Assembly (NCBI GenBank): GCA_905178155.1 | Contig: CAJINV010000001.1 | Location: forward strand, 16,058,142 to 16,122,141 | Origin: Amoebophrya sp. A120 | Lineage: Eukaryota > Protista > Dinoflagellata | DNA: 64,000 nucleotides | Direction of reading: 5' to 3' | Part shown: positions 20,918 through 62,500 of the stretch, one piece after another | How the letters are laid out: each line of letters begins with the position of its first letter | Position numbering within the stretch: position 1 is the stretch's first letter | Program-made: the position numbers and the translations under genes | The notes under the pieces: model-generated | Seen by the model: only the letters and a program-made list of their open reading frames with translations | What the model was told of the DNA's origin: nothing | The model's database searches: none

Positions 20918-23900
20918 TCAGATTTCTACAGGTTTGGGGTTCGGATTACGAATATGCCGCATCGTCGCCCCGCCCGCCTGCGGCATGAACGGCGTGTGCT
21001 TACCATATGCCTTGGGCAGACCGTAGGCGCCTTCGGGAATGTACGCATTGACGCGGGGCTCTGCCGTGGTTCGAGTAACATTCGAATGCAAGATCACCTC
21101 CTCCTGCATGCGGGCCTGTAGGGTGCGTCATTTGAAAACGCATCGGAACTTGCAGAGTATGGACTTCGCACTTTAGCAAAAACACTTCGTCAGTCATATT
21201 CGACCACAGCTTCCGGTGCCCAACAAACAAATTACGCGGCACGAAATATTCAAATCACACAACATACCTTCGCCCGCTCCTGATCGGCCGCCCTTTGCGC
21301 CTCGAGCTGCACCAACTTCTGCAGCTCCTCTTCTGCGGTAGCAGTTGGTGGTTGGTTTTCCCGCAGACGGGCGCGCGCTTCGGCAGCAGCATCCCGGAGT
21401 AGGTTGGCTTCCTCGGACAGTTTCATACTCGTGGCCTGGTACATACTCAATTCGGAGACCGTAGCCATCATCTGTCGCGTAACTTCCTTCATCTTTGCCT
21501 GGAAAGCGTTCACCCGTTGCGACATCTTCAGCGTGGCCTGGCGCCCGTCAATGGCCTGCACCCGAAGCTTCTCGCTCAATGCGGTCACCTGTACGTTATT
21601 TTTTGCGAAAACAAATTCGCACATGATGGAAGCATTCCAGATTTAAAACCCGAAACCCTAATCGATACCGAAAAAAAATGAATGCACGAAGCGAACAAGT
21701 ACCTCTTCCACGATGAGCTCCTTTTCAAGAAGCTGTTCCTCCTTCGCATTTAGTCTCTCTTCCAGCCACTGTCTTTTTGCCATGAGTGTGTCTTTGTCTG
21801 GATCGGTGACCTGGCCCTCGCCAAGGAACCTCCACTTGCGTACCTGAAGATTCCAGAGTCGTCTTGTAGTTGTCTTGTTCCCCTTCCCAGACAGTGAAGT
21901 AAGTACTTAGATCTCTTGGGCAAAATAAGTAAGTAGAAGCTCTGTGGCCATTTGCATTTTTTCACAGAAGGAGCTCTAGACCACACCTTGCTGCTCGGGT
22001 TTTCCAACTCCGCAGACAGCGCGTCGGACTGTCGCTTCACGCCGCGCAGCTGGTCCTTTAATATCAGAACCTTCTCCGTATACTGGGCGGTGTCTTGTAT
22101 ACTTCGGTTCATGGAGACCTGTCGTGATATTGAGTCTCGTTAGATTTACCACATTAAGATCATCATCATATTTCATGTCCATTCTTAGTGCACGCTCGCG
22201 GCTATGATATTTCAAACCACAATCTGAACGGGCCACAATTGCAATACTTCTGATCATTCCCTCCGAATAAAACTACAACTGAACCTCCCTTCTATACCAT
22301 CCTCCTGTTAAGCGCCGCGAGGTCGATGCGGCAAGACCGGAGATTTTCCATTTTTTGCTGAATGGCCATCTCGCCTTTCTTCAGAAGCAGCTCCTGCACG
22401 TTCGACTTCTCCCATAGAATACACAGCTCGTCATTCCTGTCGATGAGCTGGATCCCGGTCTGGTTCCGCTGGCACACGGCGTCCTCGAACTTCTGTTTGG
22501 CCACGGTGATTTCTATGGAAGTGTCAGAATCGAAATTGACAAAATCGAAAAATTTCTGATGCATAAAATGTAGGGCACTGGAGGCCTGTATTGGGTAGCA
22601 GGCAAGTGAGACCGATTGGGAGCCTGTTTCGGGGTATACAATGTGCTGCCAGAGGAGCATGACAGGAGGAGCCTTCTTTGCCCAAACAGCATGACAGACT
22701 GGATTTGGGTGCTCCCGAAATTTGTCATGCGCCAGTTGGAAACTGAGGCTCCAACTGACATCGATTTTGTGCATCGCAAATTTTTCGACTTTGTCAATTT
22801 TGATTCTGACACTTCCATAATTTCCCGCTCCAATGTGTTGATCAACGCGTTCAGCTGGTCGATTTCCAGCACGTAGAGCTCCACGTTTTCGTTCGCCTGG
22901 TTTATCTTGTGCAGGATCCGAGTGAGCTCCAGCCGGTACGCGTCGCGCACCGCGCGCTGCTTCTTCGTCTGTTGCTGCGTTTCCGTGATGGTCTTGTCTT
23001 TCCCCGCGGATTCCAGTCTTAAAATCTCGATCTCGTTGCCCAGAACCTTGAAGCGCTCGCGCATCTCCGACAATTTTTGACTCGCGGCCTGGATCAGCGC
23101 GACGTACTTGTTGCGCTCGTTTTTCACCACTTCATACGCGGCGCAGAACTCCTTTTGCCGCTCCGTCACCTCGGCCAGCTTCTTTCGGAGGTCGAACTCC
23201 TCTAGTTGCTTCATCTGCACATTGTCCCACACCTCCTTGCTCAGCACCGTCGCGTTTTGCAGATCGCGGACCAGCTTCCCGTGCGCCTGCTCCACAAACC
23301 GCAGGTGCTTGCCCCAGTCGCTGTTTTGCCGCTTCAGGTTGGCGAGGTCCTGGCGGAGATCCTGCAGGCCTTGGTGCAGCGAGCTCAACTCCTCCTTCTT
23401 CTCCTTTTCGACGCTCTCCTGCTTCAGAAACGCGCCGATGAAAACGTCGACCTCGTTCTGAATCTCGTCTATAACCCGCTCAGCTGTTACAATCTCAAAC
23501 GTTACAATAAAATATGGAAATCTGTGATGCAAAAGATGGTGCATGACCTAACCTACTCCCACAGCATTGCGCATGACAAGTTCTGGAGTCCCAAACCGCA
23601 CTGGAATCTGGCGAAATTTGTATTGCAGAAAGTGGAACGCTGCGCGGGTCTGTCATGCTCATCATGCAATACAAAATCCAGATTCTATTGTAACGTTTGA
23701 GATTGTAACGTTTGAGCGGGTCATATCGTCCAGAAGCAGAATCTGCTTCTTGTTGTCCTCGGCTGCAGTGTTTTATTTACGAACGTTGCTAAAGATGATG
23801 GACTAGAAAAGTTGTTGCAGTGAATGAAATGGAAAAGAAACTCGCTCAGTACTTTCGGGTGGAAAGGAAATCACAAACCTACAAGTGAGAAAACAAGTAC

Positions 23901-26254: not shown

Positions 26255-29200
26255 TCATGTCTTCTTTGGTTTCACGCGGTGGGTAAATTCCTTCTGGGGA
26301 CTCAGCACCCGCAGGCAGTTTAACGCCCCGCACGGCCACAACCGGACCGCCACGTGAGTGGCCCGCCGGGCGGAAAACCCCTCAAAAGTCATGGTCGAGC
26401 CGGCGAAGGACTTCGCGTATCGCTTTTCGCAGAGTCGCTCAAAGTGGCCCGCCTGCAGCAGCCGCGCGCCCTGTCCCTCGTTTCCCGCGTCGGAAGCCGC
26501 CTGGGACAGCATGAGACCGCGTTCCAGCATCTGTTTCTCCTTCATTTTCCCGTCCTCCCCCTCCGTCCAATCCGTCGCAAACACCTCGACAAACTCCGCC
26601 ATATCATGAAAACTGTGGGAGAAGTCCAGCTCAACGCGTGAAATCGTCACGGGCTGCACCGTGTCGGTGGCGTTATTCCGGTCCCGCGCCAGCACCACAA
26701 CCAACACCGAGCCCTGCCCGACCGCCTGGTTCCTTTGGCGCGGGAACAGGATCCCGCGCTCATGCGTGAAGGGGCATTTCGGGTAAGAGACAAGGGGTAA
26801 ATATCGGGCCGGGACGTTGTCGGACAAGAGCGCTGTTGAGGATTCCTGCATGACCGGCTTCCCGATCTCTTGCCGGGCGAAGTCTGGAAACAGCACCAGT
26901 GCACCCAAATCGGAGGACGCGACATTCACCAAAATGTCGGCAACTTGCTCCGGTGGTCGCTTGTTCATCTGGGCCAGTGTATTTGCTGTCAAAAGCTGCT
27001 GGTTCAAGACGAACGTTCGTCTTTTCCGGAACGCGTTGGCCGAATCGGTGATGTCGACGGCCGGCTCCTCGTCCTCCTGTTCGAGTTGTTCCACTTTCAA
27101 TCGATCCTTCAGCAACCTGACGTCTTGCGCACTACTATATGGGGACGCCTCAGCCTCCGTGTAGGCAGTCGCTTTCGGGTTCTGCAGAAACGCCTTCCAC
27201 GCAGGGACATCCGCAACGCCAGCGGTATTTCGCCAATCGGAGTTTTTAGTACCGTTTTTATCCGCTAAAACTATCTCAACCAAATCCTTTTCTGCAAACA
27301 GTGCGATCCGCGCAACGCCGCCGTCCGGAAACATGCGCAACTCGAACTTCGTGCGGTTACTGCCTTCGTGACAGTCCTGCTTCGCGATGTTGTAGAGAAT
27401 TTTGCCGTTAATCCGCATCCAGTGCTGCGCGTTCGCAACCGGCTCTAGGGCGCGAGGGAGCAAGTCCACGTATTCTTTCTTCTTATGGTCAAAAACGCAG
27501 AGGAACACCCGCTCGGGCAAGTCTCCACTTTTTACAAATCCCGTCGAGAGGAAGAACATCCACGACGCGGTGTCGGCCGTGCTCGCGTTCCACAGAGTGT
27601 CTTTCCCTTCCACGTCGAACCTGACATAGTCAAACTTCGCCGGGTTGTGTCGGCGCGTGCACCAGGAATCGTAGTCGACGCTTGGAAAGAAGGGAGAAAA
27701 CAAGTTTTCCACTTTTCCCAGCGTCCCTACGTCAGTGGCGTCGGCGATGATTAAGTCAGACGCTGGGTTGGTGAAAATCTCTCCACCTGTGGTCCTACTG
27801 CGCTCGTCCTGCTGCTGTGATGAAGAGGCGTGCATCATAATTAACTGGTTCCTGGGCCCGCGGTCGTGTTTGCTTCGCTCGTCGCGAAGAAAGTCCTTTG
27901 CCTTCATCGGACAAACTTCCTTACTGATCAGCTTGCCAAAGAACCGCTGCTGAAATTTCTTCTGAAAAGTAAACACTTCTTCCCGCACCGCGGCCCCCAT
28001 CGCGTCTAGATCGGTGGAGAACTTCTCCTTTTTCGTTTCTTCACTTCCTTCTTTTGTCTTTCCCTCGCTCTCTACTGCAATTGCCGCTGTTGTATTGCCA
28101 GAAGTTGCAGCACTGTGGTCTTCCACGGCGGCTGCTTGCTCTTTCTGCTTCCGGCCCGCGAAGCCGAACTTGGAGCTGAAGACGGAGGTTGCGCAGGCCA
28201 CCCAGTGCTCTTCTTCAACGATCGTTGCCGCCACGTCGACCAGACAGGATAACCGCGCGCCCGCGTTGCAGCAGATCACACAGCCGCGACCGGAATCGGG
28301 TCCTTGGATGCAGAGGAGAAACAGGCCGCAGTGACCCTCGTTGGAAAAGTGCTGCATCACGAACTTTGCGTTGTCCACCCGATCGAAGCCCCGCGCCAGC
28401 AGCACCGCCCCACTGGTCGCGCCGTCGATCCCGGCCTGGCGCATGGCCTCGGAAGTTTCCTGGAAGTGGAGCTTGTCCCACAGCATTCGCGCGCCCTCGT
28501 GCGAAATTGCCGCAGATTTTTCATCAACGATACTGTTCCCGAACCCGTTGCACATGTTCGCCAGCAACCGACTAAACGCGAGTGGCGTCGCAATCGCGCC
28601 ACCCGCAAGCTCCGGGTACTGCAGCATCAACCGTTTCGCGGTGCTCGGTTTACTCGGGTCGTAATCTACCGGATGCCCCAACGCCGCGTAGGGCTCGATC
28701 GCGTCGCTCTCGTCGTCGTTTTCGTCCGCGACCCCCGGGCCGGTGGGAACCTCGTCGCTCATCCGGGCCTTGTTGACCCGGAAGCCCAGTTCGCGCACGT
28801 TGTTGCGCGGTTCCGCGAGCCAGGGCCGCAGAATGTCGTACATCGATGTTTTGTCCGGGGAGTGGAAGAGTTCCAGCAAGTATTGCAGGACCAGTGCGCC
28901 CGCCGGCGTCGGCTCGTACGCTTCCCGCGGTTCCCGGGCGACTGCTAGCTTGTCGTACCCGAGTTCCTCCGGTGCCTTTCCCCTCATGATGTCCAATACA
29001 GACGGTTTGTCGTCCTTGAGACCGCGGCCGACGAGCGGGCCGGCGCTGAGCACCGCGTGGCCCGTCAAGTCGCGGAGCCGCACTTGGTCCCCCGCCCCGG
29101 TCGCGCCCGCCAGGTCGGGCAGCACGTACGGTGCCCGCATCGCTCGCAGGATGTCGTTCACCGGCGTGTTCGCAAATAACTCAAACAGGGACCGCGGAGG

Positions 29201-32200
29201 CGGCGGGGGCGGCTCCTCCTCCTCCTCGCTCTCGTCCAGCGGCTTTTCCTTGATTTCGTAAAACAGGCTCTCCAGCTGCTCCGCCACCTTCTCCGGGAGC
29301 TCTCTCCGGTCCAGGGAGAGTTGCTTTTCCACGAAGAAGGCCGCGGCAAGAAGCTGCGAGAAACTGCCGAGTGAGAACAGCGTGTCCGCCCGCATGTGCT
29401 TCCGCGCGCTGTGGTACAAAAACCCGGATTTCCCGGCCACCACGGGCCGCTCGGGGAAGGAAACTTTTGGCAACGTCGGGATGAAATTGCTCGTGGTCAC
29501 GTAGTGCCTTCTAAACGGTTCAGCTTTGTCCGCGAAGCTTTGAAACGCGACCTGATCCGGTATACTTGCGGACGCGGCGGCCGAGCGCGGAGGCGCCTTC
29601 CGACGCACCATCATCCCCACATCGAGCGGACTCGCGTCCAGCGCGGCGTCCAGCGGCCGCAGCAGACTGACGCTGATCCCCGGCACGCCGTGGTTGCGGA
29701 CGCACCCGTCCACGGCGCGCTGCAGCCGCAGCCACCGGAAGGGCAGGTTCGTCAGGAGCCGCTGCAGCCGCTCGTGCAACGCAGTCTGCAGCAGGCCGCG
29801 CACGCGGGTCTGCAGCTCCGGCTTCAGCCCCCCGATGCCCCGGAGCTCGTGCCGCGTCTGCTCGTCAAACACATTCTCCTCGTCGAAGGGGAAGCCGCGG
29901 CGCAGCACGTCGAACGTGATGCCCTCGTCGACTACGAGAAAGCGCGAGAAGTCCAAGCAGTCGTGCTCCGAGCGAAACGACCCTCTGCCGCCCTCAAACA
30001 CCATGGCCTCCGCGTACTCCGCGCACAGGTAGACGTTTTCCATGTACCACACCTGCTCCGCGAGGGGGTTCGCAACCGAGGTCCAGTAGTGCCCCGGCCA
30101 CGCCTTCGCGACCAGGTCCCACGGGTCCGCGAACGTGTCCGCGTTCTCGAAGAGCGCGTCGTAGAGGAAAATGGTCAAGTACTCCTGCACGGAGTTCCGG
30201 CACACCTTGTCGCACACCAGCTGCACTAGCAACTGCAGCACCACGCGGTACCAAGGCTTGGTCCGGGAGGTGAATCGCAGCACGGTCGCGTGGTCAATCA
30301 AGTCCGGCAGCGGCGTCCCCTCGTCCTCCGTGCCCGCCGGCGGGTCGTAGGGGGTGATGAGACTCACGCGGTCCAAGTTTCGGTACTCCTCGAACAGCAT
30401 CTGCAGGAAGGTGTTCCGCGGTAGACGGCCGTGGTGCACCTCCAGCCACAGTTCCATGCGGGCCTTTTCCAAGCTCGCCAGGTCGTAGTACCGCAGCACC
30501 GCAATCGGGTCGCTGTTCACCTGGGCCCACACCGGCCGCACGAACTCCGGAAACCAGAGCGTGGTGAAGTCCCGGAAACAGGTGTAGTAGCACAGGTACT
30601 GCAGCGCCTCGCGGATGCTTTTCCGCACCTCTTTCTCCACGTACCGCAGCTGGGTCTTCGCCTTCCGCGGGTCCTTGCTCTCCACCTGCAGATTCTCGTC
30701 CAGAAACAAAACTTCGCGGGTGACCTCGTTGCTGCCGATGCCGTCGCGCTCGACCGGCCCCGTGATGCCCTGCACCTCGGCGCCCTGCTCCTCGTCCGTT
30801 TCGGCGTCCTCGTCCTCGCCCATCTGCGCGAAGAACATGATTTTCTTCAAGTGCCGCCGCACCACGTCCAACCGCCCGTCCCACAAAAAGGGGTTTCGCG
30901 ACCGCGCCGTCACGCTCTTCAGCAGCGCGTAGCACACCTCCAGCGCCTCCTGCTTGGCCTCCGTGAATTCCGTGGGGTCGTCCAGCCACTTCGTCCGGGC
31001 CTGCCAGTATCGCGAGTACACATCCCAGACGCACAGCCCCGGGCGGACGTAGTCTTGCGCGTAGCAGCAGAACCCGTCCAGCCCCGCCTGGACGTGGGCC
31101 ACCACCTCGCGGACCAGTTCCAGCATCACCACGACGTCCGATGCGATGCGCTCCTCCGACTGCGCGTCCAGGTAGGGGTTGAACAGCTCGGGCCCTCCGG
31201 GGGCAACGCTCTTCATTTTGCCCGCCAGCGTTTGCGACACGGCAAACCCGCAGAGCGCGAAGTGGGTGCCCGTGGCAACCAGGTCCTCGCCGACCATCGA
31301 GCGCAGCCACACGCGCTGCATCTGCAGCCCCTGGCGGAGCCGCTTCTCGTCCGTGCGGCGCAGCACCCGAAACAGCGGGTCGCGCCGCTGGGACCGGGCC
31401 AGCGCCGCGAAAAACTGGTCGGTGGAACCCAGCCCGACGCTGACCACCACGTCGCTGTCGGCTGTGGTTGTGTTGTTTCCGCGTCCGAGCAGGTCTGCGA
31501 CGGCCGGCACCGCGTCCAGCAAAAATCGCGGGTGCTCGCAGGTGACAGCCAACTTGACTTTCGGAACAGCTTTCTTCACCGCCACCGCCTTTGACGCCAG
31601 CCCGCGCAGCTTGCCAAGGCCCCCAACTTGCGGCTTGTTTGCAGCAGAGGCTCTATTCCCAGTTCCGCTTGTCCCGGTCGGCAGTAGCGCCAACGCACTG
31701 TCGATCAGGTTGCGGACGTACAGGGCTTCTTCGCGCGAGTGCAAGTTGCCCACCTCGAAGGTCAGCTCCGCGAGGTCCTTGTTGTGGTAAAGGAGCAGGC
31801 AAACGCAGTACAAGTGCAGCGGCAGTGGGTCGCGCCCGTCCACCAGATGCCACCAGTCCGCCAGCTCGAGATCGGGCAGCCGCGTTCGCAGCGCCGCTTT
31901 CTTCCGCTGATCACCTCGCAAATTCGGCGTGGTCCCGTGCAGACAGTAATGCAAACCCTGGAGGCACTTGGCTACCGCCGTCACGTCGCCGACGCAGGCG
32001 TCGACGTTGGCGCAAAACTTCGGCAACAGCGCGGATTTCGTGATCACTTTGCTCACCTCCGTGACCTCCTTGTCCTTGCCCGCGTGGGCCGTCGCGAGGC
32101 CGTACTCCGGCTCGGCCTCCAGCGGGCCGGCCGCACCCCGGAAGCTCACAAAAACACGGTCGCGGTTCACCTTCCGCCGCGCCATGTCGCGGATGCTGGC

Positions 32201-32857
32201 TTTCTGGGCCCGGTCCTCGATGGCGTCGAGGTTGCGCTCCTGCATACCCTTCACCGCATTTCGGCCCGCCCCCGCGAAAATGTTCGTAGCACTGGTTTTA
32301 TTCGCGGCTGCTGCTCCCAGCATCACGGACTTGGTTTGTGTGAAGGCGGGATCTCCACCGTCCTTGTCCACAAGTCCCAGGTACTGTCGCTTGAAACTCG
32401 CGACTTCGTCTGCCACCTCGGGGTAAACCGCTTGAAAAATCTTCGCCCTTTCGGAAAGCGCGGTCTCCAGACGCGCATCTTCCCGCTCCAAGCACGCCGG
32501 CGCGCGCCGCGGCCGCGGCGGCTTGTCGTACGCATCGTCCCAACACGTTTCGTAGGCGTCGCTTTCGTAGTCCCGCGACTGGTTGCGGGCGACGCAGAGT
32601 TGCGTGCGCGCATCTAACTGCTCCGCAACCACCTCGCGCTGCAGCAGCAGCAACGACAGGGCGCCAGCGTTGGCCAAGTAAACTCTGCGGACGTACGCAA
32701 GTACCTCCTCCTTCTCCCACCGGTTCAGCTCCTTATTGGAGCTGATCTTCTTGTGAATTTTCCAATTTGTCCCGACCTCTTCGTACTCCCCCCGCGCCAG
32801 AGCCGCCTCGAGCACCCTGGGCGCTAGCTGCCGCTGATAACTCGTCACGTCGTCCAT
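26255..32857 (-). CDS. About 2,200-aa fusion protein: malate synthase A-like domain + beta-lactamase-fold (serine hydrolase-like) domain + two allantoicase repeats
   Basis: Intronless ORF. Malate synthase-like: RLPDLELADWWHLVDG…LLLYHN, FEVGNLHSREEA, REVVAHVQAGLDG, VRKSIREALQYL, YDLASLEKARMELW, EYLTIFLY. Beta-lactamase-like: HGVPGISVSLL, ADTLFSLGSFSQ, YPELAGG, HFSNEGH, GRGCVICCN. Allantoicase-like: DSWCTRRHN, LRMFPDGGVARI, VELDFSH, THVAVRLWPCGALNCLRV. Confidence 0.8.
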   Translation of the reverse strand: MDDVTSYQRQLAPRVLEAALARGEYEEVGTNWKIHKKISSNKELNRWEKEEVLAYVRRVYLANAGALSLLLLQREVVAEQLDARTQLCVARNQSRDYESDAYETCWDDAYDKPPRPRRAPACLEREDARLETALSERAKIFQAVYPEVADEVASFKRQYLGLVDKDGGDPAFTQTKSVMLGAAAANKTSATNIFAGAGRNAVKGMQERNLDAIEDRAQKASIRDMARRKVNRDRVFVSFRGAAGPLEAEPEYGLATAHAGKDKEVTEVSKVITKSALLPKFCANVDACVGDVTAVAKCLQGLHYCLHGTTPNLRGDQRKKAALRTRLPDLELADWWHLVDGRDPLPLHLYCVCLLLYHNKDLAELTFEVGNLHSREEALYVRNLIDSALALLPTGTSGTGNRASAANKPQVGGLGKLRGLASKAVAVKKAVPKVKLAVTCEHPRFLLDAVPAVADLLGRGNNTTTADSDVVVSVGLGSTDQFFAALARSQRRDPLFRVLRRTDEKRLRQGLQMQRVWLRSMVGEDLVATGTHFALCGFAVSQTLAGKMKSVAPGGPELFNPYLDAQSEERIASDVVVMLELVREVVAHVQAGLDGFCCYAQDYVRPGLCVWDVYSRYWQARTKWLDDPTEFTEAKQEALEVCYALLKSVTARSRNPFLWDGRLDVVRRHLKKIMFFAQMGEDEDAETDEEQGAEVQGITGPVERDGIGSNEVTREVLFLDENLQVESKDPRKAKTQLRYVEKEVRKSIREALQYLCYYTCFRDFTTLWFPEFVRPVWAQVNSDPIAVLRYYDLASLEKARMELWLEVHHGRLPRNTFLQMLFEEYRNLDRVSLITPYDPPAGTEDEGTPLPDLIDHATVLRFTSRTKPWYRVVLQLLVQLVCDKVCRNSVQEYLTIFLYDALFENADTFADPWDLVAKAWPGHYWTSVANPLAEQVWYMENVYLCAEYAEAMVFEGGRGSFRSEHDCLDFSRFLVVDEGITFDVLRRGFPFDEENVFDEQTRHELRGIGGLKPELQTRVRGLLQTALHERLQRLLTNLPFRWLRLQRAVDGCVRNHGVPGISVSLLRPLDAALDASPLDVGMMVRRKAPPRSAAASASIPDQVAFQSFADKAEPFRRHYVTTSNFIPTLPKVSFPERPVVAGKSGFLYHSARKHMRADTLFSLGSFSQLLAAAFFVEKQLSLDRRELPEKVAEQLESLFYEIKEKPLDESEEEEEPPPPPPRSLFELFANTPVNDILRAMRAPYVLPDLAGATGAGDQVRLRDLTGHAVLSAGPLVGRGLKDDKPSVLDIMRGKAPEELGYDKLAVAREPREAYEPTPAGALVLQYLLELFHSPDKTSMYDILRPWLAEPRNNVRELGFRVNKARMSDEVPTGPGVADENDDESDAIEPYAALGHPVDYDPSKPSTAKRLMLQYPELAGGAIATPLAFSRLLANMCNGFGNSIVDEKSAAISHEGARMLWDKLHFQETSEAMRQAGIDGATSGAVLLARGFDRVDNAKFVMQHFSNEGHCGLFLLCIQGPDSGRGCVICCNAGARLSCLVDVAATIVEEEHWVACATSVFSSKFGFAGRKQKEQAAAVEDHSAATSGNTTAAIAVESEGKTKEGSEETKKEKFSTDLDAMGAAVREEVFTFQKKFQQRFFGKLISKEVCPMKAKDFLRDERSKHDRGPRNQLIMMHASSSQQQDERSRTTGGEIFTNPASDLIIADATDVGTLGKVENLFSPFFPSVDYDSWCTRRHNPAKFDYVRFDVEGKDTLWNASTADTASWMFFLSTGFVKSGDLPERVFLCVFDHKKKEYVDLLPRALEPVANAQHWMRINGKILYNIAKQDCHEGSNRTKFELRMFPDGGVARIALFAEKDLVEIVLADKNGTKNSDWRNTAGVADVPAWKAFLQNPKATAYTEAEASPYSSAQDVRLLKDRLKVEQLEQEDEEPAVDITDSANAFRKRRTFVLNQQLLTANTLAQMNKRPPEQVADILVNVASSDLGALVLFPDFARQEIGKPVMQESSTALLSDNVPARYLPLVSYPKCPFTHERGILFPRQRNQAVGQGSVLVVVLARDRNNATDTVQPVTISRVELDFSHSFHDMAEFVEVFATDWTEGEDGKMKEKQMLERGLMLSQAASDAGNEGQGARLLQAGHFERLCEKRYAKSFAGSTMTFEGFSARRATHVAVRLWPCGALNCLRVLSPQKEFTHRVKPKKT

Positions 32858-34953
32858 CGTTCGTGTGTTGTGTCGCTGCAACGCTTTGGAGAGGGAGCAG
32901 TGCAGGCAGCACAGGTCGACGTGACGCGAGCAACATTAGCAAGAACGAATCAACATAATCCGTCTGGCTTCTCTGCTTTTGTCATCCGATAGAATCGCGA
33001 GGAAATGAGTTGATGCTTTTCATGCTAGCATATCTGTTATCTTTAAGTTGAAATCAAGTCGGGGGCATTTCTTCATGCTGGCGAGCAGCTGGTACAACCT
33101 TGTGTAGTACCGAGCAAGTAACTACGCACATGATACAGAATAGGTCCACGCTTCTGGTTGAGAGGAGGTTAATATCAAATCTTCACAACTGAGGTCATTC
33201 CCCTGTTCACTTCCATCTGATGTAAAATCTGTGCAGCTGCTGCAAAACCAGAGACTAGCGCGAAGAGCGACGACGTAAAACGAAGGAGGACGAATAACGC
33301 GATTTCTGAACGATATAAAATGAGTACACGCCACGAGGCTCTTGACAGCAGTAGCACGATTTTTCAATATTTCAGCCCGCTAGGCGCAATGAATTTATGT
33401 GGACGACGAGAAGGCACGCAACAAAGAAACACAAGGAAACGAACGAAAAAATGATCCGGAAATCTCACACAACCAAGGCGAAGCAAAGGCCCCCGTTCAT
33501 GTGACAGTTCTATTTTCCCGCACCAACATGCTTCGACAATGATGCAAAAGCTTGACCATTTCATGCCTGCGATTCCTCGTCGCATCGAGGAGAACACTGA
33601 ATCCAATAACATGCTGAAGAACACGACTGACTTTTTCTAAACCACATGTATGTCAGTGTGGCGCTCAATCACTTAAAGTCATTCTCATCTCGTTCCTTAG
33701 CAACATTCTGGAGGTTGTACTTACCCCTAAATGGTTGTTCTCATACCGTCTCCCAGTACTTTCGCTGAGGAGGACTTTTGAGATGCAAATTATATTCGTT
33801 TGCGTATAGATATGTTTTTCGTGGTGGAACCCGGAAAACGCGGAGCCTTGATCTCCAGAGTCCGTGCTTTCTTCCTCGCCAGCAGGTCGGACTGAGCTTC
33901 TGCTTGGCGTGGACCTGACAAAAAGCATGGTGGTAGCGTTGCCAAAACGAGGTATAAACTAGTTTACTTTTCATGACTAAAAGTTTTTCCCTTGTTGCTA
34001 TAGGTTAAAAACTTTTTCATGCCTCAAATCAAAATCAAACCAAATGGCTTTCAAGTTGCCTAGTGCAACTCGAGACTCTACCCAGGGCTAGAAAGGAAGT
34101 CCCATAGAGAGTCACGGCAAGACAGTCATCGCTAGGGTCTTAGGGGCAGAATTCTTGGATATCTGTGCTACACCCCGACCGAAGCCTATATCTCTCTGCG
34201 AGTCAACAACGAACTCTCACAGCAATCAACAACGAGCATTCTACAGTAGTTCAAAACTTTTTGTGCGGGGCGACAAACTAAAACAAGCCTAAAAAAAGGT
34301 TCTTGTCTCTGCTTCTCGCTATGAGGCTGTCAAATAAACATAAATCGGCTAAAGAATTTTGTTGGTGCTATCGTAATAAATTCTCAATTATGCGTGTTCT
34401 GACGACGATGCTGTTGTCTATAAAAAAACTGCTTCTTCGCTTACAGCTCGCCGACTATTAGACTGATCACAAACCACGGACAACAATCAAGGCCTCGTTG
34501 GTCGTACAACTACTTCCCGGTGGCAATAACATGTACGAAATTTACATATCCACCTGATAGTACCCAAGTTTCCTTCTTTTTATTCATCTCGTCTTTTTCA
34601 ATTATCCACGGCGGCCGGCGTCCGAAAAGCAGCAAAGGGAGTGCGCTATCAACTGCAAACCAATCTATCTGTGTCTGGAAAATTGCAAAATTGTGTGTAG
34701 TGTTGTCATGCTAAGCACCTCGGAAGGGAGCTGAGCATTTGCCAATGCACGCACACCACCTCGGCGCTTGGAAAATGTCGCCAGACTCAGCTACCCTGCC
34801 GACTCATTACCGGTTTGTTGAGAGGCGAAATTCAAATTAACCTCACACAGGTTGGCTAATTTGTTTCTCATGCAAAAACACGATTTGCTCTCGTGTTAGA
34901 ATTGCAACTTGGATATTGCTCAAAGCTGCTCAGGCGAACTAAAAGTCCTTATT

Positions 34954-37900
34954 TCATGATGACCCTATTAGCAACGCAAGTCTAGTACTCTCGCACTTTT
35001 CCAGACTCAGAGATATCATTGCAGTCGATACGAAGTCATCGAAGTCCGTGTTAGAGCCAACGCGGAATTGACCCAGAGACTCACTCCTGTCGCTCTGGCT
35101 CTTCCCTTCTCCAAGTAACCGACTCGGAGCAAGCATCTCCTCCATCGTAGCATGGTGGAGCTGGTCCACCGTCGTCCACGCCTCTGCGTGATCACTCCCT
35201 CCCAGAACATGTGCCCGAGTCGCTCCTTCTTTGATTGGCAAATACACCGTCGTTGCGTCACGAGAGCCCTCTCCCATCCCCGTCCCGATTAGCACTGCTT
35301 TTGGTCCGTCCGGCAGTAGCGTGGCTTGGACCAGGCCTAGTTCGGCGTTGAAGCGCCGGTCAAGGCGGTCCTGTCTTAACATTTCTCGGGCTTTCTCCAT
35401 GGAAATATTTCCGTCCTCGACAAAGTCTTCGATTGTGAATTCAGGATCTCCCATGTTTCTCCACTTAGGGACATCCCCTTCTGCTGGGTCCTCATCATCC
35501 ATTATGTGACACAGAAAAAAACGCGCGCATCATTGTTGTATATGCACTAAAACATAAATATTTGTTCTGTCGAAAGTCAGTACGTATCATGGAGCCCAAA
35601 CCATGCCGCTTTGTTGAGATATGCAACTTGGAGGTGCGTCTCCCTCTCCTTGTAGTAGAGTAGTTGTAGTCTGTTCTTGCATTACAAGAGATGCGATAGG
35701 GTGCCTTACTTTTTTCTCTGAGATACAGGAAATGGAGTTTCATGGCAGGGGTCGCTAGACTCCACCGTCGATTGGCGCTAGCAAGATCTTGGTCAGTCAG
35801 CCATTTTCTCGTGAAGTCGTACACCGACTCCATTGACCCCCCGGCCACCAGCCGAATAAACTCTTGCACTTTTGCGTACGGAAAACGCAGCGTAGTTTTG
35901 TAATGGAGCTCCAATAAAGATCGCTCGGAAAGCTGCTGGCTTATACCTGCACCCACCTCGACGGCGTTCCTGCCGCCCATTTTGCGCCACAGCAACTTGA
36001 AAAACCGCTGCTCAACGGCCGCGCAGTGTCGCCTTTCTGGGCTGCCTTCGTCCGGGCCTCCAAAAGCTTCGCAAACACGGTCTAGGATGCGCGTCTGCAG
36101 CGTTTCGACGATAAAGGCCCATTCGTTCGCGGCAGTCGCATCGATAATGGCGTCTGTTCGAAACGCTATCAGGTTTACGACGCCACATGGGTAGATGAAC
36201 TGATCCTCTCCTTGCTTAAGCTTCGGCTCCGAGTCGTCGAATCGCTTTCCAAAGTACCTTTTGATAAGCGCTTGAATCAGGCCTTTGTACAGTGCTTCAT
36301 GGTCTTGAATCAGCGCAACAACGGGCAAAGGACCAGACTGGCCCTGCGGCGGAAAGTAAAAGCGAAACTTCGTATCAAAGCGAAAAGTGCCCGACCTTCA
36401 GAACAACAAAATAATTGTCGTGCAAAGTTCCGACTACGACCCAAACACACAATCCCCTTCGTCGTGCAAAATATAAATTTCTACATGGAAAACTCTGCAA
36501 CTACAAAAAAGAAACTTTTTGTGAAATCCGACGCGTTTTGTTTCAGAATCTATTCGAGTTTTCCAGCTCTAATCAATGGCATGACGTACACTGTGCTTGT
36601 GCGCACCACAGTTTCTCGCTATCATCGATTTAAAATTGGTGCTGCTGACCAAGAGTTTTCTGCAGAGAAACTTTGCTTTAGAAACATTCCCCCTTTCTTC
36701 TGGAAAGGCGCTTTTCTTCTTGATACTTCGCATGGGTGCGCAGAGCGAGGCCAACTGCGCGACTTACGGACTTCTCGGGGACTACGTCGCTGCTACTTGG
36801 CAGCTTCTGCAAAAACTCGTTATGGACGAGCGCTTCCACTGCGGTCGCGAGTGTGCCTCTGCCATTCGGGACCATTTCTTTTTGAAGCCGGAGCACAAAC
36901 TGCCCAATACTGTAGGGCCCTCGGGCTTCTGTCTGCAGGCGTGCGAGATACCGCGACTCTGCCCCGGTTCCGTCATCAGAGGCGGCATTTCCACGACCCA
37001 GAAAATGCTCAGGAAGGTCAGTCCCACTGCAGGTGTCCGGCGTCAATGCACAAAGTAGCGTCCATGGGGTTGTCCAAATTTCCGCACCGTCTCCTTTGAA
37101 GAATAACGGTAACTCGTCCGCCGACTTGGATTTGCCAAGCACCTTGTCATACACAGATGGCCACACAGTGAGTTTTTCTTTGAGCCCTAGTTGTTGCGGC
37201 GTGGGCGGGCTTCGCAAGATACGCAGCGACTCCAAACACGTGAGGCTTTCCTCAACCTTCTCCGCTAGCCCTTCGGCGGAGAGCTCGCGTTCCGGTTGCA
37301 CAACGTCCAACTTTTCCGGAGTAAATTCAAGCTGGAGGCAAGCGGGGGCGCGATAGGCAGTCTTCATCAGACGAAAGTCGGTCTTCATAAACCTTGCCGC
37401 CAGCTCGGTGTGTGCCATAGTGTTGGCGAATTGGTTGCTGTGAACGGTGACTGAAGGGAACTCTGCTCCACCCATGCCCTGCTCCAGCAATACCGGCCTC
37501 TGCGTCTGGGCTACTTTCTTCAGGTCAGCACGATCGTCCGGGCCCAAAAAGGATTCTTCGAGCGCATCGCCGTACGTCAGGTCCACTTGCGTTGGCAGCT
37601 GGAGTGCGGCTGGAACGCCATCTCGATCCGGAACGAAAGCACGACCAAACTCATGCAGAAACGAGCGCAGCAAGTTCAGCATGTGTGTTCGTGCGGCCTG
37701 CACAGCCGGCAGTGCGTCCTGCCTCAACTGTCGCAAAAATCGCGCTACCACCACTAGCATCACACGTCGACGGTGTAGGTCTTCCCAAAAAACGCCAAAC
37801 CGCCTCAGATTTCTGTATCCCACAGGAAAGAAAAAGGATAGTCATAGTGTCAGCGTATAATGCAAAAATAGTTTACCAATTCTCTAAGTACTTTTACACA

Positions 37901-41493: not shown

Positions 41494-44400
41494 TTATTCG
41501 GAATAATATCCCAAAACGCCCAAATCTGCCTGCAGCCGGACGTGGTTCAGGTGCGTGCCAAAGCTGAACAAGTTTCCGCCCCCGCCGACCAGGTGCAACT
41601 TCCCTCCATCCAAGCTCGCGGAGTGGTGCATGCAGAGAAAGTTACAGTCGGGTTGAAGCTTGGTAGAATTCTGGCTTTTTTCATCGATCTGCAAGGTGAT
41701 GATGTCCGTGATTTCGCACTGTTCGAAAGAAAAAAAGAACAGGGGAATTTCAGCACTGCTGTTCTCGCTCTTTGACACCAAGCAGTCGCCCACAATCAGT
41801 GCGCCAGAGGAGGTCCTCCTCCCTGATTTATCATTATCTGGCGGGATGCCGTCCGCTTGGCTGCTCTCCCGCGACGGCGCATTTCGCCTCTCGCAGGGTA
41901 GGACAGGACAGCCGTAAATCCCGGCAAGGACCGAGGGCGGGGGTACCATCGTCCCGGCGTCATTGCAAAGCTGTTCACGCGCAGCCGTCATCAAGGAATC
42001 GCTCAAGATTTGCACCGGGCTAAAAGAGGCTGAACTAGAGCTTGTGACGTCTTGTTCTATCCTTTCCATATCCATTCCCAGTGCCTCATCCGGAATAAAC
42101 AACACTTCACCGAGCCAGTTTTCCGCTCCGTCCAGGCCACCAAACAGGTACGCCCCTCCGTTTGGGCCCCAGCAGCAGGAGAGACTGTGCCGCGCGGTCG
42201 GAAGCGTGAACGGAAGCTTCCGCCATTGGATGAAAGTGTTCGTCGTTGTTCCCAGTTCTCCTGTGTTTTCCTCCTCCTTTTCGTTGGAGGATCTTGCCGT
42301 GTCGGAAGATACAGCTACTACCCCGGGTCGATTTTCGATTCTCCCACGCCAGATCTCGTTTGATGCCGCCCCGTGCTCGCCCCTGCCACCGAACACAAAA
42401 ACTTCGTGCCGAGTCGAAGAAGACAGATTATCTTGTTCGCAACTGCCCCTCCGCCGAACCAGCGTGGCGTGGCGATAGATACCTGGTGGACCCTCGGCCT
42501 CGGTGGCAAAGCGGGGCTCATTTTCCGCCGCGGTGGGCGGGGGATCCTCGAGAGCACAAGGCTGTAGTAGAGCCGCATCGTCACTGCAGGCAACAAAGTT
42601 GTTTTTCCCGTCGTCGGTTTCGTGGATGCTGAGAAGTTGTTGCGCCATGACTCTCCTTGACGTTTTCGTTGTTCCCTGGTGCTGAAGCGACGGCTTCCAC
42701 GGACTAGTGCGGCCTCCAAGTACTAGCACTTTATTCGAGGACGTTGCAGAGCCCGCCGGAGATGCGAAGTCGTCTAGCACCACCGCGCTCGCTCCCATGG
42801 GGCAGGCCATCGCTGCCGCACCCGGCGCCGGATTTTTATGAGAGGGAGCAGCACTCCCGCCACTGTGCAAAACACTAACCGTCGTGTCCTGGTGGGGAAA
42901 TAACACACCTGCGCTACTAGTAGTGCAACCACTATGATCCTCCGCCACACACACCATTGCCACACTGTTCAGTCGCTGGTGATTACCCGCTGCAGTCTTG
43001 CCGAAACCGCCATGCAAGCAGAAAGCTTTCCTCTGCCGATCGAACCACACCGCGGAGCCGTACCGCGCTCCCAAGGAGCAGGGGAACGCGCGTCCGCTCG
43101 CACGGGAGACCGAGATGGAGGACAAGGACTGCTCGGCTTGTACATCTCGCAATCGTTTCCAACACGTCGGTTTCGTTTCTACTTCGTTGCTAGGACCACT
43201 AGCTGCTGCTGTTCCTTGGTTCAGCATGATTCTCGCGAGCGCAGACCGGTCGTTCCCGCCGGCAATGAGCACGTAGTGCTGGAGCTTTGCGTGCCACTCT
43301 TCAAATTCGTCGAAGGGTTCGATTGTTTTCCACCGTTCCAGCACGTCTCTATTTTCCGCGTCGTACAGAAACTCCAGCAGCGTTCGGCAACCGGCGAATT
43401 GCAGCCCTTGGTGCAGAAAGCGCTCGGCCTGGGCCACCGGGGTCGGGTACCGGTGGTAGGCAAACAGCGGGCTTCCTCGCTTGCGGAAGTGCGCGTCCAT
43501 CACGAGCCCAAAATTCGTGTGCGGCAGCACCTGCTCGTAGGACAGAACCGTGTGGGGCGCGGAGCTCTCCGCGAAGATCTTGCCTACGGTGCGCACGACC
43601 GCGTCGGCCTCGTCGGTCGGCAAGTAGCACAGCACCACCTCGGCGAGCACCAATGTCGGCCGGTTTGCGGCGGCGAACGGCGCCAACCGCCTGCGCACCT
43701 CCTGCCGATCGGTGAGGTCGCAGCCAAGCAGTAGTTGGGCGCAGGGGCGGGGGCCTGCTTTTGGGGGGGATGGAGGGTCATGATCCGCGCTTGTTCTTGC
43801 GTTATCGTGCTCTGGAGGCGGAAACGCGTGGGCGTTCCGAGCCATAATCTCTTTTTTGCGCGTGAGGAGGTCCGGAAAATCCAGCTCAACGAACGCACCA
43901 ATCCGAGTTCGGTCGTAGTTCTTTGGGAAGGTTGTTATATCTGCCTCGGTGCTGGTGCTGTCTGTGTTTCGGTGGTGCAACCGCCAGTACAGTGTGTCGA
44001 ACCCTGCCCCGAGAACGATGATCTGCGTTGCCGTGTTATCCTGTGTAAAAACATCCCCACCCCAGAGTTGTCATGCTAAAGGAATTGCAGCACACTTTGC
44101 CCCCCCCTCTGCCCCAGGCCGCAGATGGCTTGACACGCAGGGGGGGTAGGTCAGGCGGACACCGAAGTGCCATCACCATCATCTCCCGGCCGCTAACCAA
44201 CTTTTCGCAACCTGCCATACTCCTCACTTATTCGCAATTTTTTTCCGGCTCCGCCGTCCCTGCAGGCTAGTATGTACGTGCGCCCGAGACATATAACACG
44301 TCCTCAAGTGCAACAGCACCCAAGGCGGTTTTCCTGACGCATGCAAAACAGTGCTCAGTCGGAAAACCTGGGATCACGCATAAACTACCTGGAGATTCGC

Positions 44401-45455
44401 AACCAACCATACTTGTCTCACAACCAGCCTTACTTTTCGCGCCAACACTTAGTCCTTTTGCCAACAGTTTCACGCCCACATCCAACCCCAGAGTTGTCAT
44501 GCAGATCTGCATGCGCAGGAGCATTTGTAATGCGCATCCCCATGAGAGGCATTTCCCAGCGTATTTTGGAACTTGTAATGCTGTAAACAGGGTCGGGAGA
44601 TGGATTTGCTATGCGGCTTCCCTTGCTAAACTGCATTACACTACAGCCTGCAACTTGTCATGCGTGGCTCCCAAAACTTCGAGGTTTGTGTTGCAGAATC
44701 CCCAGCTTGACTCTGGGGTGGGGACGTTTTTACAAATGATACGTGTCCGGGTAAAAGTCGATAAACCTGCGCACCGTGCGCTCCACAAGCTCGTACCGGA
44801 TCGCGTAGCCTCGGTGGATCAGCGGTGCCCGCCGTTTGATGCTTTGTGCGCCAGTCAGGTTGGGTGCCTTCGGGACGGACGACGCGGTGGCTTGTTTGCC
44901 CTTCGGTACGACGAGCGCTTTTTGTTCCGCGCCGGGGGCCACCAGGTCGTGGCTTGAGGTTCCAGTAGGCGTTTCGGTTCTATTCTTCGTGGTCGGAGAC
45001 GAGGATGCAGCTCCAGCTGCCGGGCACTGGCGACGCGCTACTCCCGCCGAGCGCTTGTCTTCGGTGCGCGGGCTGCTGCCGCTTGAAGGTTCCCACGAAT
45101 CCAGGCCTCCTTCCTTGTTTTGCTCTTTTCTTGACCCTTCCTCCGCTTCGGCATCTTTGTCCGTAATATCGGGCCTCGGTTTATTTGCGCTACTACGTTT
45201 GTGCTGCGTACTGCGTTTGCTGCCTCTTTGCGTCCCGCGATTCTCCGGAGTAGACACGACACCGGGGGGTGAGGCCGCCTTCGCCGGCCGCGTTGCTGCC
45301 CCTACTTCCTCGAACGCGAAGTACTCAACCCAGGGATCTTTGAAATACCCGAAGCGCACGGTGGAGGCCTTGGACACGATGGAGCTGTCGTTTGTTAGCT
45401 GAACACACATGGCATCTTGCGTGCCGCCAGCGGCCGCCGAAGTGGTTGACGCCAT
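41494..45455 (-). CDS. TYW4: tRNA wybutosine-synthesizing protein 4 / leucine carboxyl methyltransferase 2 (LCM domain + Kelch repeats)
   Basis: Motifs VQLTNDSSIVSKAS…GYFKDPW, RRAPLIHRGY, QIIVLGAGFDTLYWRL, VELDFPD, AEVVLCYL and EPFDEFEEWH, followed by Kelch motifs (HGGFG, VLGGRTSP, VFGGRG, LFGGLD, GGGGNLFSFGT). Two exons (45455-44742, 44031-41494) are split by an introner. Confidence 0.92.
44037..44741. mobile_element. Introner / MITE-like intron, family B, compound (705 bp), in TYW4
   Basis: TIR TATCMTKTGTAAAAACRTCCCCACCCCAGAGT with direct repeat CGTGT at 44032-44036 and 44742-44746. Removal restores …FYPDT-ATQIIVLGAGFD…. Confidence 0.93.
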
Positions 45456-46080: not shown

Positions 46081-46162
46081 AGGGCGGCGCAGGCCAGGGC
46101 GGCGCAGGCCAGGGCGGCGAAGGCCAGGGCGGCGCAGGCCAGGGCGGCGCAGGCCAGGGCGG
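46081..46162 (+). repeat. 15-bp tandem repeat (AGGGCGGCGCAGGCC) x about 5.5
   Basis: Near-perfect tandem copies read directly; degenerate copies flank the array. Confidence 0.9.
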
Positions 46163-46214
46163 GGGTGCGGCGCAGGTCCAGGCGGCGCAGGCCCGGGCGG
46201 CGGAGGCCTGGGCG

Positions 46215-59003: not shown

Positions 59004-59598
59004 AAGCAGAACTGGAGTAAACCAAGTCAACAATGCACGTGACCGCTTCGGGACTAATTATGCAGCGCAATTCAGGAGGAGATTGAGATACAAAGTGCAC
59101 TTGATGAAGCGAAAATCCAGGCCGGGGCTGTGGAAGTTTGCGGAGAGGAAATGTTCTCCCCTGCCGGATCATCATGATACTTTCGTGGTCCAAGCGACGA
59201 CTTACTCACTTTTTGGATATAGCGGGTTCTGAACAAATTTTGCAAAATTTCCGGACGGTGATCGCAATCGCTTCTTTTCGAATACAGAATCTTTTACGTT
59301 CTGTCGGCTATGACGCTCATGATCAGACATTGATTGAAGGAGTGGCGATCAGATTTTTCACTTTTCAGGTCGCAAGCCCCACCTGGCACGCATCACGGAG
59401 GCTATGAGAAGAATCAGTGCTAGGGTCGTCCCAGTCTCATGTGATTCACGGAAGGACCCCCACGTGTATGCTTATTTCGCCCAAATATCACATCCGTTCC
59501 CCTTGGTATTTTAATTTTTTTTCTTGTAGCACCTCCTTTCGACGCGCCCGGTTTATTTGATAAGATATGCGTTTTGCATTTTAGAAGAAAACAAAATC

Positions 59599-62500
59599 AT
59601 GGACGACTCCGACGTGCTCGAGTTTCAGGTTTCCTCCCGCGAGGTGGGGCGCATCATTGGCACCAAGGGGTGCAACATTCGTGCCCTGGAGCAGGGTTCG
59701 CAATGCCGCATCAAAACGCCGGGAAAGCGGCCCGCGCCCCAGTTTGGTGGCGTTCAGAACAACGAGCGCGATGACGACGAGGACGAGAACTGCATGATTC
59801 GAATCACGGGCGGCAACGAGAAGTTGCGCAAACGCTGTAAGGAAGCAATTGACGCGGTGCTGATGGGCAGCGACCCGGGGGACGTCTTCGCGGAGCTCGA
59901 CGGTGCTGGCCTGATTCGAAATTTAGACCCCGTAGTCTTGAACTATCTCGGCAAGGAGAAGCAGCGGCTAGAAACCGATCACAAGGTCCGGCTGGAGCTG
60001 GAGGCGAAGTCGCTACGCATCTGGGATCAGGACGTGTACGGCAACTACGCAGGTGGTTCGTCGAGCTCGTCCTCCAGAGGTGGGGGGAAAAATGGCCAGA
60101 AGGGACGAGGAAAAAAGGCCGGAGGAAAAAATCACCACAAAGGTGGTCCTGCCATGGATGTGGACGAGGAGAGTACAACAACTACAGCGACTTTCAACCA
60201 GAACAACGTGGGCAGTAGTTCAACCGGCGTCGCCAAGTCCGACCGGATTGAGCAGGCCCGCCAGGCCATACAGCAGGAGATAGACGACTTGCAGACCAGC
60301 GAGGAGATTATCGTGCGCGTGCCGGGGAACCGCGTGAACCAGATCATAAACCACAGTTCGCTGCGGCAGTTGCAGGATACCTCGCATATCCAAACAATGG
60401 TGACGAAGGATGACGAGGGCACGGGGATCCGGCTGATCGGACTAAAGGGCGCGATCGAGGAAGGGCGAAATTGCATCGAAAAGCTGATCCAGGGCGAGGG
60501 TGCGGATTTTCTCGCGCTCTACCCGAATTTGATTCAGGATCTGCTCGGGAAGAACCGCCGCATGGAAGCGGATTTCCACCGCGACTTGAAGTCCGCGGCC
60601 GAGTTATCATTTGTAAAAATGTCCTCACCCCATAGTTGTCATGCAATTCTGCATGCTGAAGATGTTTCTCATGCGGAGCCCCATGAGAAGCATTTTCCAA
60701 TCGTGTTTCAGACTTTATTGTGCTCCAATCAGCATGATATGCTAGATTTGTGATGCTAGTGAACTAGCTAAACAGGATTACACTCTGAGACCAAACTTGT
60801 CATGCGCAACAACCAAGCCTTGTGGATTTTTTTAGCAGATTTCCCATCTTCACTCTGGGGTGGGGACGTTTTTACACAGGATACGAGTACTGCGGGGTGC
60901 GGGTATCGTTGGAGGGAACCAAGTTGGCTTTCTCCGACGCAAACCCGGAGCAGGTGCACTACGCGTATCAAATGTAAAAATGTCTGGGTCTGGAAGAATG
61001 CAACTTGTCTAGCTAAATCTGAAGCGTGCAAAAATCTGTGTTGCATGATTACCAAAAGTCGTCCAGTTTTGACAAAGTCGGGAGGCAGTTTCTCACGCAG
61101 GGTAGGCATGAGAAAGATCGCACAGAATCTGTCATGCTAGGTCCTGCATTCCAGACCTCATGGGTCATGGAAAAGCTGCATGACAAATCGCGCATTCTTC
61201 CAGACCCAGACATTTTTACATTTGATAACGCGAAGGCCGAGGCCATGAACATCCTCACCTACTACTTCCCGCAAAACTGCTATGGATGTGTCAGAGTTGA
61301 AATCGACAAAGTTGAAATAACTTGTCAAGCATAAAACCGATACCAGTTGGAAGCCCAATTTCCAAGCGGCGCATGACAAATTTGAGTAGAGCCGAAGCCC
61401 AGTTTGTCATGGTGTTTGGGTAAGGAAGACGCCTTTTGTCATGCTACTTTAGCAGCTCTATTTCTACCCCGAAACAGGCTTACAATCTGCCTCCCTTGCC
61501 TACTCTGCAAGACAGGCAGTTTCTCCGTTGCATTTTATGCATGACAAATCATTTCAACTTTGTCGATTTCAACTCTGACACTTCCATAACTGCGCCAAAC
61601 TGGAAATCGCCGAGCAGTCGGTGGTATCAAATGTAAAAATGTCTGGGTCTGGAAGAATGCAAGTTTGTCATGCTTGTCTGGCATGACTGGTAAATCTCTC
61701 ATGCACATTACCAAAGAGCCCCACTTTTCTGTCATGCAGAGACGCAATTTGTCATGCAGAATAGGCAACACTTACAAGCTCAGAAATTTGTCATGCTGAG
61801 CCAGCACTTGTGGCCTCCTCATGCTACGCCACTCAGCATCACAGGTTTCCAGACATCCAGGGATTTTTGCATTTGATAGGTGGACTACGTGGCCGGGGAG
61901 GAGGACCGGAATTTGATGCGGCTGCAGCAGTATCAAATGTAAAAATGTCTGGGTCTGGAAACTTGTGATGCTGGGTGGCGTCTCATCATGAGGCTACAGA
62001 TGCTGGCTCAGCATGACAAGTTTCTGAGCTCCTAGGTGTTGCCTATTCTGCATGACAAGCTGCGCTTCTGCATCACAGAAAAACGAAGCTCTTGGGTAAC
62101 ATGCATGACAGATTTAAGAGTCATGCCAGACAAGCATGACAAACATGAATTCTTCCAGACCCAGACATTTTTACATTTGATAAGCAGATGGGCGCGAGCG
62201 TGTCCCTGGATCGCGATCACGGCTACGTCTGGGTCTGCGCGCCGCAGGCCCGGAACGTTGACGCAGTGCGAAAACGCATCGACGACCTGCAAACCAGCTG
62301 GCGGGAACTTTTTCAGGTAGTTAGAAGCATTCTTGCGCGGAGGTAGCTCACCTCGTAGTAATTTTGTGTAATGCTGCTTGGTGTAATTCGAAATAGCGGC
62401 GCGCTCCATGCGTCAGTAATTTTTTCTACTCCCCATGCCACCAACAGGTGATATCAGTTCGACACCAGGGGGACTTTGGCAAGCTCTTCAGTCGCGATGG

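Follow-up and report, generated by a model that had tools for sequence, protein, structure and literature searches.

A shared internal word in the introners of Amoebophrya sp. A120 as a putative subterminal DNA site

The introners of the dinoflagellate Amoebophrya sp. A120 carry repeated copies of one short word, TGTCATGC/GCATGACA, inside terminal inverted repeats (TIRs) that differ from family to family. The word was studied in a 64,000-nt stretch of the genome (assembly GCA_905178155.1, contig CAJINV010000001.1, positions 16,058,142 to 16,122,141 of the forward strand), hereafter the window, and in metagenome loci. With a probability of roughly 0.6, the arrays are putative subterminal sites at which a protein binds double-stranded DNA, and selection on them acts through their transposition by machinery of the Ginger/IS3EU type. 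This reading draws on the transposon anatomy of the elements, their removal from RNA with one copy of the target site duplication (TSD), and the universality, conservation, strand independence and spacing of the word.

How some 30,000 Amoebophrya introners move, and how they are excised without GT-AG borders, are both treated as open questions in the available text of PMC7789003. A common word offers a bait for pull-down experiments, a marker by which autonomous elements and decayed copies can be found (one such copy in the window came to light in this way), and a clean reporter test in which mobility and splicing are told apart. Should the word serve transposition, it would argue for one machinery shared by the many families, counter to the ruling out of general mobilisation by transposase; should its role lie in splicing, it would be an intron mark of a new kind.

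Introners of the window and the word they share

The elements are the published A120 introners (PMC7789003), with which they share, as far as the accessible parts of that paper and of PMC12130899 describe them, the organism, a TAT start followed by an A-run, direct repeats, non-canonical borders and a very high copy number. Those parts give end motifs only, whereas the elements described here also contain an internal array. The motif strings are absent from the searched text and supplements of PMC7789003, PMC12130899 and PMC9860276 and from the Amoebophrya and introner papers among the matches listed, a search that did not cover figures and online consensus files, and no title among the papers listed concerns an internal motif; the shared motif is apparently unreported, and its novelty is provisional. 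The elements of the window, and the one isolated site, are as follows.

10524..10531, plus strand: isolated exact site that belongs to no element, no more than chance would give (1 observed, 1.78 expected)
22514..22819: introner A1, 306 bp, TATGG ends, TSD ATTTC, within a CFAP58-like gene on the minus strand; exact sites 22657, 22689 (reverse), 22723
23470..23725: introner D1, 256 bp, TSD TCGTC, in the same CFAP58-like gene; exact sites 23571 (reverse), 23651; variants 23523, 23541
34647..35030: decayed C-like element, 384 bp, without matching TSD; exact site 34704, variant 34866
35505..35725: decayed H-like element, 221 bp, left end TGT, TSD matched at 3/5 positions; single variant site 35679
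36373..36725: diverged TAT…ATA element, 353 bp, TSD CTTCG; 0 exact sites, variants 36416, 36579
44037..44741: introner B1, 705 bp, TSD CGTGT, within an LCMT/TYW4-like gene on the minus strand; exact sites 44069, 44495, 44656
60605..60883: introner B2, 279 bp, TSD CGAGT, within a KH-domain gene on the plus strand; exact sites 60637, 60798
60966..61227: introner C1, 262 bp, TSD ACGCG; exact sites 61130, 61178 (reverse)
61281..61588: introner A2, 308 bp, TSD ACTGC; exact sites 61371 (reverse), 61437, 61539 (reverse)
61625..61878: introner C2, 254 bp, TSD GGTGG; exact sites 61666, 61730, 61750, 61789; variants 61681, 61697, 61836
61931..62182: introner C3, 252 bp, TSD AGCAG, an inverted relative of C2; exact sites 62011, 62050, 62103, 62134 (reverse); variants 61964, 62070, 62119

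The eight introners A1 to C3, recognised in an earlier sequence-only reading of this DNA, all run from TAT to ATA, each with an exact 5-bp TSD. Twenty-five exact TGTCATGC/GCATGACA sites were counted across the window, 23 of them inside these eight intact elements (2,622 nt) and 2 in the remaining 61,378 nt, a 215-fold enrichment (Fisher p 3e-30); 1,000 dinucleotide shuffles of the eight elements gave a mean of 0.25 exact sites and a maximum of 3. Among 8-mers present in all 4 families and all 8 copies, GCATGACA ranks first. With the decayed copies included, the elements total 3,580 nt and contain 24 exact sites, compared with 1 in the 60,420 nt outside, where 1.78 are expected; since the site at 34704 lies inside the decayed C-like element, 10524 is the sole exact site outside elements. 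Eleven RNA-defined canonical introns hold 0 exact sites, although their total of 1,656 nt is too short for a strong control.

The sequence-only reading had listed 14 site positions, all correct to within 1 base (22723, 44495 and 44656 had been given as 22722, 44494 and 44655), and the enrichment of the word over background, which it proposed to check by k-mer counts, is borne out by the figures above. Its count of 5-6 copies in each of the last two elements was off, C2 and C3 holding 4 exact sites each, or 7 each with one mismatch. Its statement that the word usually occurs in both orientations does not apply to either family B copy, in which the exact sites are unidirectional. Two sporadic background sites had been named, of which only 10524 is truly outside elements, and the statement that all elements carry the word is right for intact copies, whereas exact sites number 1, 0 and 0 in the three decayed elements, rising to 2, 1 and 2 when one mismatch is allowed.

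The word was chosen post hoc from the window, and its enrichment was replicated outside it. A metagenome scan with the family C end recovered at least 136 loci, a C-biased sample; an element finder that required TAT called 265 elements, and after removal of 1 duplicate and of 5 elements exceeding 500 nt there remained 259, 8 of them window elements. Sorting by TIR signature gave 10 families and 3 unplaced elements. Every one of the 252 elements of at most 330 nt has a site within one mismatch (mean 4.5), compared with a mean of 0.15, and 13% with a site, in shuffled controls. The 122 non-C elements (28,547 nt, mostly from metagenome loci) contain 160 exact sites, at least one in 89 of them, and flanks 1 in 15,757 nt. 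Across the loci, in which overlaps are counted twice, 499 exact sites lie within called elements and 320 outside; most of 14 outside regions inspected proved to be elements with imperfect ends that the finder had missed, and a few sites were not assignable.

The consensus is AAWYY-TGTVATGC, with an A-rich run upstream of the word, seven bases specified almost exactly and a wobble at position 4 (C 447, G 235, A 139, T 7). A strict dimer site, TGTNATGC-N7-GCAT, was weakly supported, GCA occurring at +15 in 19% of sites, and was set aside. Lengths are tight within families A-I, at about 150, 210, 227, 239, 262, 280, 307 and 322 bp. From the outside inward, elements consist of outer bases common to the families (9-15 bases, with outer 9-mers shared among C, F, B and G), then, in most families, a family-specific doubled 5-6-mer, then the universal array. 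The doubled 5-6-mer is conserved within TIR positions 16-45 at a spacing of 5-7 or 15 bp (C GTCTG, F TCGTA, E GTGTA, D GTTAC, A GAAAT, B CCCCA). Once masked for the word, most family interiors do not align, those of E/H and D/G being weakly alignable.

Some copies are long. In B1, B ends enclose some 420 bp of filler together with another, partial B left end near 44485, and unrelated filler between normal ends is likewise present in metagenome copies L015:3314-3770, L026:571-1051, L027:3315-3945, L043:3001-3972 and L132:301-699. In the KH-domain gene (window 59530-63030), five introners are packed into 1.6 kb, with exon pieces of 31-77 nt between them.

Conservation, orientation and spacing of the sites

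Conservation was measured in 15 subfamily alignments comprising 177 copies, clusters of fewer than 4 copies being excluded. Mean column identity is 94.0% in the motif, 86.4% in the interior and 87.6% in the flanks, and the motif exceeds the interior in 15/15 subfamilies; only the wobble position, at 84.5%, is at background level. The comparison with neighbouring positions that had been proposed as a check thus comes out in favour of the motif. In six alignments with at least 11 copies (135 copies), shared variants were scored separately from single-copy changes. Shared variants affect 44 of 257 motif columns (17%) and 345 of 802 interior columns (43%; odds ratio (OR) 0.27), compared with single-copy changes in 99 of 4,398 motif cells (2.25%) and 289 of 8,116 interior cells (3.56%; OR 0.62). 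Changes are therefore filtered more strongly at the level of lineages than within copies, which would be expected of a word that matters during the making of new copies. Conservation, lineage filtering and presence in every copy support the earlier proposal of a common cis signal, in the sense of a selected one.

Host strand could be called for 106 of the 259 elements. Family C lies in both orientations relative to the host gene (35:25), and on the sense strand 189 sites read forward and 154 in reverse, a difference that is not significant (p 0.07). An inward-facing site is found near both ends in 118 of 250 elements, near one end in 77 and near neither in 55, the interiors of these short elements being site-filled as well; in 27 of 250 elements, B2 included, all sites point one way. 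The lack of a significant strand bias and the one-way elements fit a double-stranded DNA target.

Spacing between sites forms a non-random 16/32-bp lattice, which is compatible with binding on one face of the helix and is no proof of such binding. In 8 of 10 families same-direction sites recur at distances of 30-33 bp; between opposed sites the distances are 15-17 and 46-49 bp. In a scan of periods from 8 to 14 bp the best was 10.4 bp, with a coherence of 0.40 against 0.06±0.04 in null sets, none of 150 reaching it; with the families merged into 5 groups, coherence at 10.4 bp was 0.34, a value reached by 0 of 60 nulls.

Transposon anatomy and removal from RNA

TIRs, a fixed-length TSD, no open reading frame (ORF) and a high copy number give the elements the traits of MITEs (miniature inverted-repeat transposable elements). 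Summed contig depth at C ends is about 5e5, compared with 45 in unique DNA. The TSD is 5 bp, exact at 87 of 100 paired C ends and with one mismatch at 10 more, and 294 of 311 C ends anchored on the inner core begin with TAT. As in the published A120 introner ends, TAT is followed by seven looser bases and an A-run at positions 11-15, weaker in families A, D and G. The repeated word lies internal to the TIRs and is better conserved than its neighbours, as subterminal repeats are.

Arrays of subterminal repeats bound by a transposase are typical of hAT elements. The hAT5 group has the same 5-bp TSD (PMC12730594, in the part available), but no hAT transposase was found among the ORFs scanned (51 from the window and 150 of 346 from the loci). 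Other likenesses are with IS3EU/GingerRoot and Ginger-like elements, which in the accessible text of PMC10045372, PMC6839031 and PMC12730594 share TA…TA termini, TIRs and a fixed-length TSD without a sequence target, and the family A start TATGG resembles the TAYGG of IS3EU. Their TSD is, in contrast, usually 6 bp (PMC10045372, PMC6839031) and here 5 bp, and the present elements have no transposase ORF; with that TSD length membership in IS3EU/GingerRoot fails, and the likeness is one of working only. The word "subterminal" is absent from PMC6839031. Within A120 itself, in the rows of PMC12130899 that were available, most families are classed as TIR DNA elements of unknown superfamily, and family 38 as Ginger, with a 5-bp TSD and TA/TA termini.

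Removal from RNA was followed in RNA-like contigs; that the runs are RNA is a guess, though canonical introns, too, are skipped in these contigs. A1 is skipped as 311 nt and D1 as 261 nt, in each case the element plus 5 nt (one TSD copy), in 4/4 runs from two samples of one study, alongside eight canonical introns of the CFAP58-like gene. The five elements of the KH-domain gene (B2, C1, A2, C2 and C3) are removed to judge by length, 203 and 334 nt remaining between flanking pieces as predicted, and with all five removed the joined frame is open over 546 codons. For B1, the database protein P0001 of Amoebophrya sp. A120, to which a 300-aa query from a window ORF is 100% identical, equals over its whole length the window minus the element and 5 nt.

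Two of the decayed elements are also skipped. The joint at the C-like copy, 34643-35031, removes the element plus 5 nt (split 4+1 or 3+2; one contig, depth 3.4), and that at the H-like copy, 35500-35725, removes 226 nt, again the element plus 5 (split 5+0 to 3+2; 2 runs, depth 3-5); no joint is listed at the diverged element 36373..36725, where RNA cover is near zero. Since decayed elements without an intact TSD are still skipped as element plus 5, the joints suggest that cut sites are set by distance from the TIR ends rather than by the repeat. Across the loci, a test of frame restoration by open-frame length discriminated poorly and a codon model was used instead, under which 238 flank pairs were scored and, of 60 confident ones, 58 require that the element plus 2 nt modulo 3 be removed. 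No GT-AG, GC-AG or AT-AC pair is available in any register in 97 of 106 elements; GT-AG is possible in 4 of 106 in any register, about the chance level, so that the borders are not those of spliceosomal GT-AG introns. According to the part of PMC7789003 available, U1 snRNA was not detected in this organism.

Nonconventional introns of euglenids, as described in the accessible text of PMC11282704, resemble these elements in TIR-paired ends, TSD-like repeats, non-canonical borders and an excision mechanism given as unknown, but that text mentions no shared internal array.

Transposition, host marking and other explanations

In the proposed mechanism, an integrase-like transposase of the Ginger/IS3EU kind, or its cofactor, would bind the arrays cooperatively, each site covering about 16 bp and same-direction sites lying 31-33 bp, or three helical turns, apart. 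Bound arrays would help to pair the element ends, and only copies with good arrays would found new lineages, by which the word would be kept in families between which the interiors can no longer be aligned. For splicing, the paired ends would matter and not the word. Binding by a protein, the identity of that protein and its role in transposition are here inferred. There is a precedent for such binding on a MITE: in the text available of PMC1636448, the Lemi1 transposase binds the TIRs of Emigrant and, cooperatively, subterminal repeated motifs. Emigrant differs in being pogo-like, a single family and not intron-forming, whereas here one word recurs over the whole element length in some 10 families with different TIRs. 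General mobilisation by transposase was argued against for these introners in the part of PMC7789003 available; the shared subterminal array, contrary to that paper, argues for common machinery at the DNA level.

Several results weigh against this account. Single-copy changes are also depleted in the motif (p 4e-5), which may reflect selection after insertion, and because singletons include rare lineages in a small sample of large families, the contrast between lineages and single copies is not decisive. C copies with an imperfect TSD keep their sites (5.3 in 21 copies, 5.2 in 126 perfect copies, p 0.61), and among C copies the decay of ends is no predictor of lost sites (rho -0.13, p 0.12). 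The two joints at decayed copies are supported by only 1-2 contigs at depth 3-5. Pfam scans of the 51 window ORFs and 150 of 346 locus ORFs found no transposase or binding protein, and none is reported for A120 in the available text of PMC7789003. The conserved TIR repeat of each family hints at several transposases, so that a shared factor could be the host's. As for spacing, a period of 16.3 bp scores 0.31-0.32 and beats 10.4 without family C (0.41 to 0.31), the window alone favours the 16.3-bp lattice (0.50 to 0.46), and the 10.4-bp coherence drops to 0.20 once multiples of 31.5 are removed; phasing was not found in families D, G and I, and phase relative to the terminus is weak (p 0.034, with a broad peak near 11).

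The strongest competitor, though unlikely, is a host DNA-binding protein that reads the arrays in chromatin and marks the introns for non-canonical co-transcriptional excision, the word being acquired or kept in all families because unspliced insertions are lethal. It would account for a word common to families whose TIR positions 16-45 are their own, for the depletion of single-copy changes, for sites retained in copies with imperfect ends and for the 97 of 106 elements without usable borders in an organism in which U1 snRNA was not detected (PMC7789003, as available), and a mark on DNA would likewise be strand-independent. Yet decayed copies with 1-2 near-sites are still skipped, on thin support, filtering between lineages exceeds that of single copies, and elsewhere in the window the word shows no enrichment of the sort that the site of a host factor might show. 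Transposases particular to each family that share a single cofactor are conceivable, and a host factor for that reason keeps about a fifth of the odds. Slightly less probable again is a version in which a single host protein would read the lattice on DNA and license tens of thousands of introners that look unrelated for non-spliceosomal or rewired excision, with the family TIR repeats serving mobility, the word serving splicing and cuts measured from the paired ends and not from sequence; if true, it would make the word a DNA-encoded, strand-independent intron mark. Of the options offered by the sequence-only reading, a binding site for a shared transposase or for a factor marking introns, a subterminal site on DNA best fits the strand independence, spacing and lineage filtering, while the sharing of one transposase is less certain, most families having their own TIR repeat.

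Action of the word in pre-mRNA, as a protein-binding splice signal or through opposed copies that pair and so lengthen the terminal hairpin, is improbable and already largely contradicted. In predicted ensembles of 7 window elements, 17 of 35 sites pair mainly with another site and TIR pairing is 0.78-0.97; opposed sites 15-17 nt apart could make small hairpins, and the sense strand has its slight excess of forward sites. Such pairing is, however, expected of any inverted word, and the elements insert in both orientations. The wobble bases of opposed end-proximal sites agree in only 32% of 118 elements, below the 47±4% expected by chance (25% in register), local inverted pairs match there in 42 of 97 cases, and B2, whose sites are unidirectional and show no motif-motif pairing, is still removed. 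The absence of significant strand bias and of co-variation, together with the unidirectional elements, makes a role at the RNA level unlikely, and the compaction of introns by opposed copies that had been suggested earlier is not supported.

A little less probable still is a signal of DNA shape or chromatin positioning, an A-tract and flexible TG/CA steps in helical phase, that would aid excision or copying without sequence-specific binding. The 10.4-bp phasing, the top period overall, and the A-rich run before the word speak for it, but seven almost exactly specified bases are beyond the needs of shape alone. In the nucleosome code, AT-type and GC-type centres are offset by half a turn, whereas AAWTT and GC centres here lie about one turn apart.

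The least probable alternative, a word without current function left by common ancestry, tandem duplication or CpG decay, draws on the relatedness of families (shared outer 9-mers, weakly alignable E/H and D/G interiors) and on CpG-poor masked interiors (observed/expected (o/e) 0.72), but is refuted, unless the contrast is an alignment artefact, by a motif conserved above its neighbours with a free wobble, by unrelated spacers and by rare precursor words. Neither proposed origin held: spacers between 31-33-bp units are 28% identical, compared with 24% when shuffled, and CpG precursor words number 11, 8, 6, 0, 2 and 2 against 447, with a masked TG/CA o/e of about 1.07. The families are related, so that inheritance with selection is as likely as convergence.

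No homologues of flanks from the window were found among the loci, no TIR-pattern matches in viral contigs and prokaryote genomes, and no Rfam matches in the window. An AT-richer segment at window 32980-34020 contains three TTTCATGC near-matches, in a setting where element ends were not recognised. Long minus-strand ORFs at 26258-32935, 37931-40525, 14012-16090 and 2-2080 (2,226, 865, 693 and 693 aa) match no Pfam family, except for an allantoicase-repeat match barely above the cut-off in the 2,226-aa ORF. Window 46056-47700 holds a 363-bp duplication and GC-rich tandem arrays with units of 15 bp and 31 bp.

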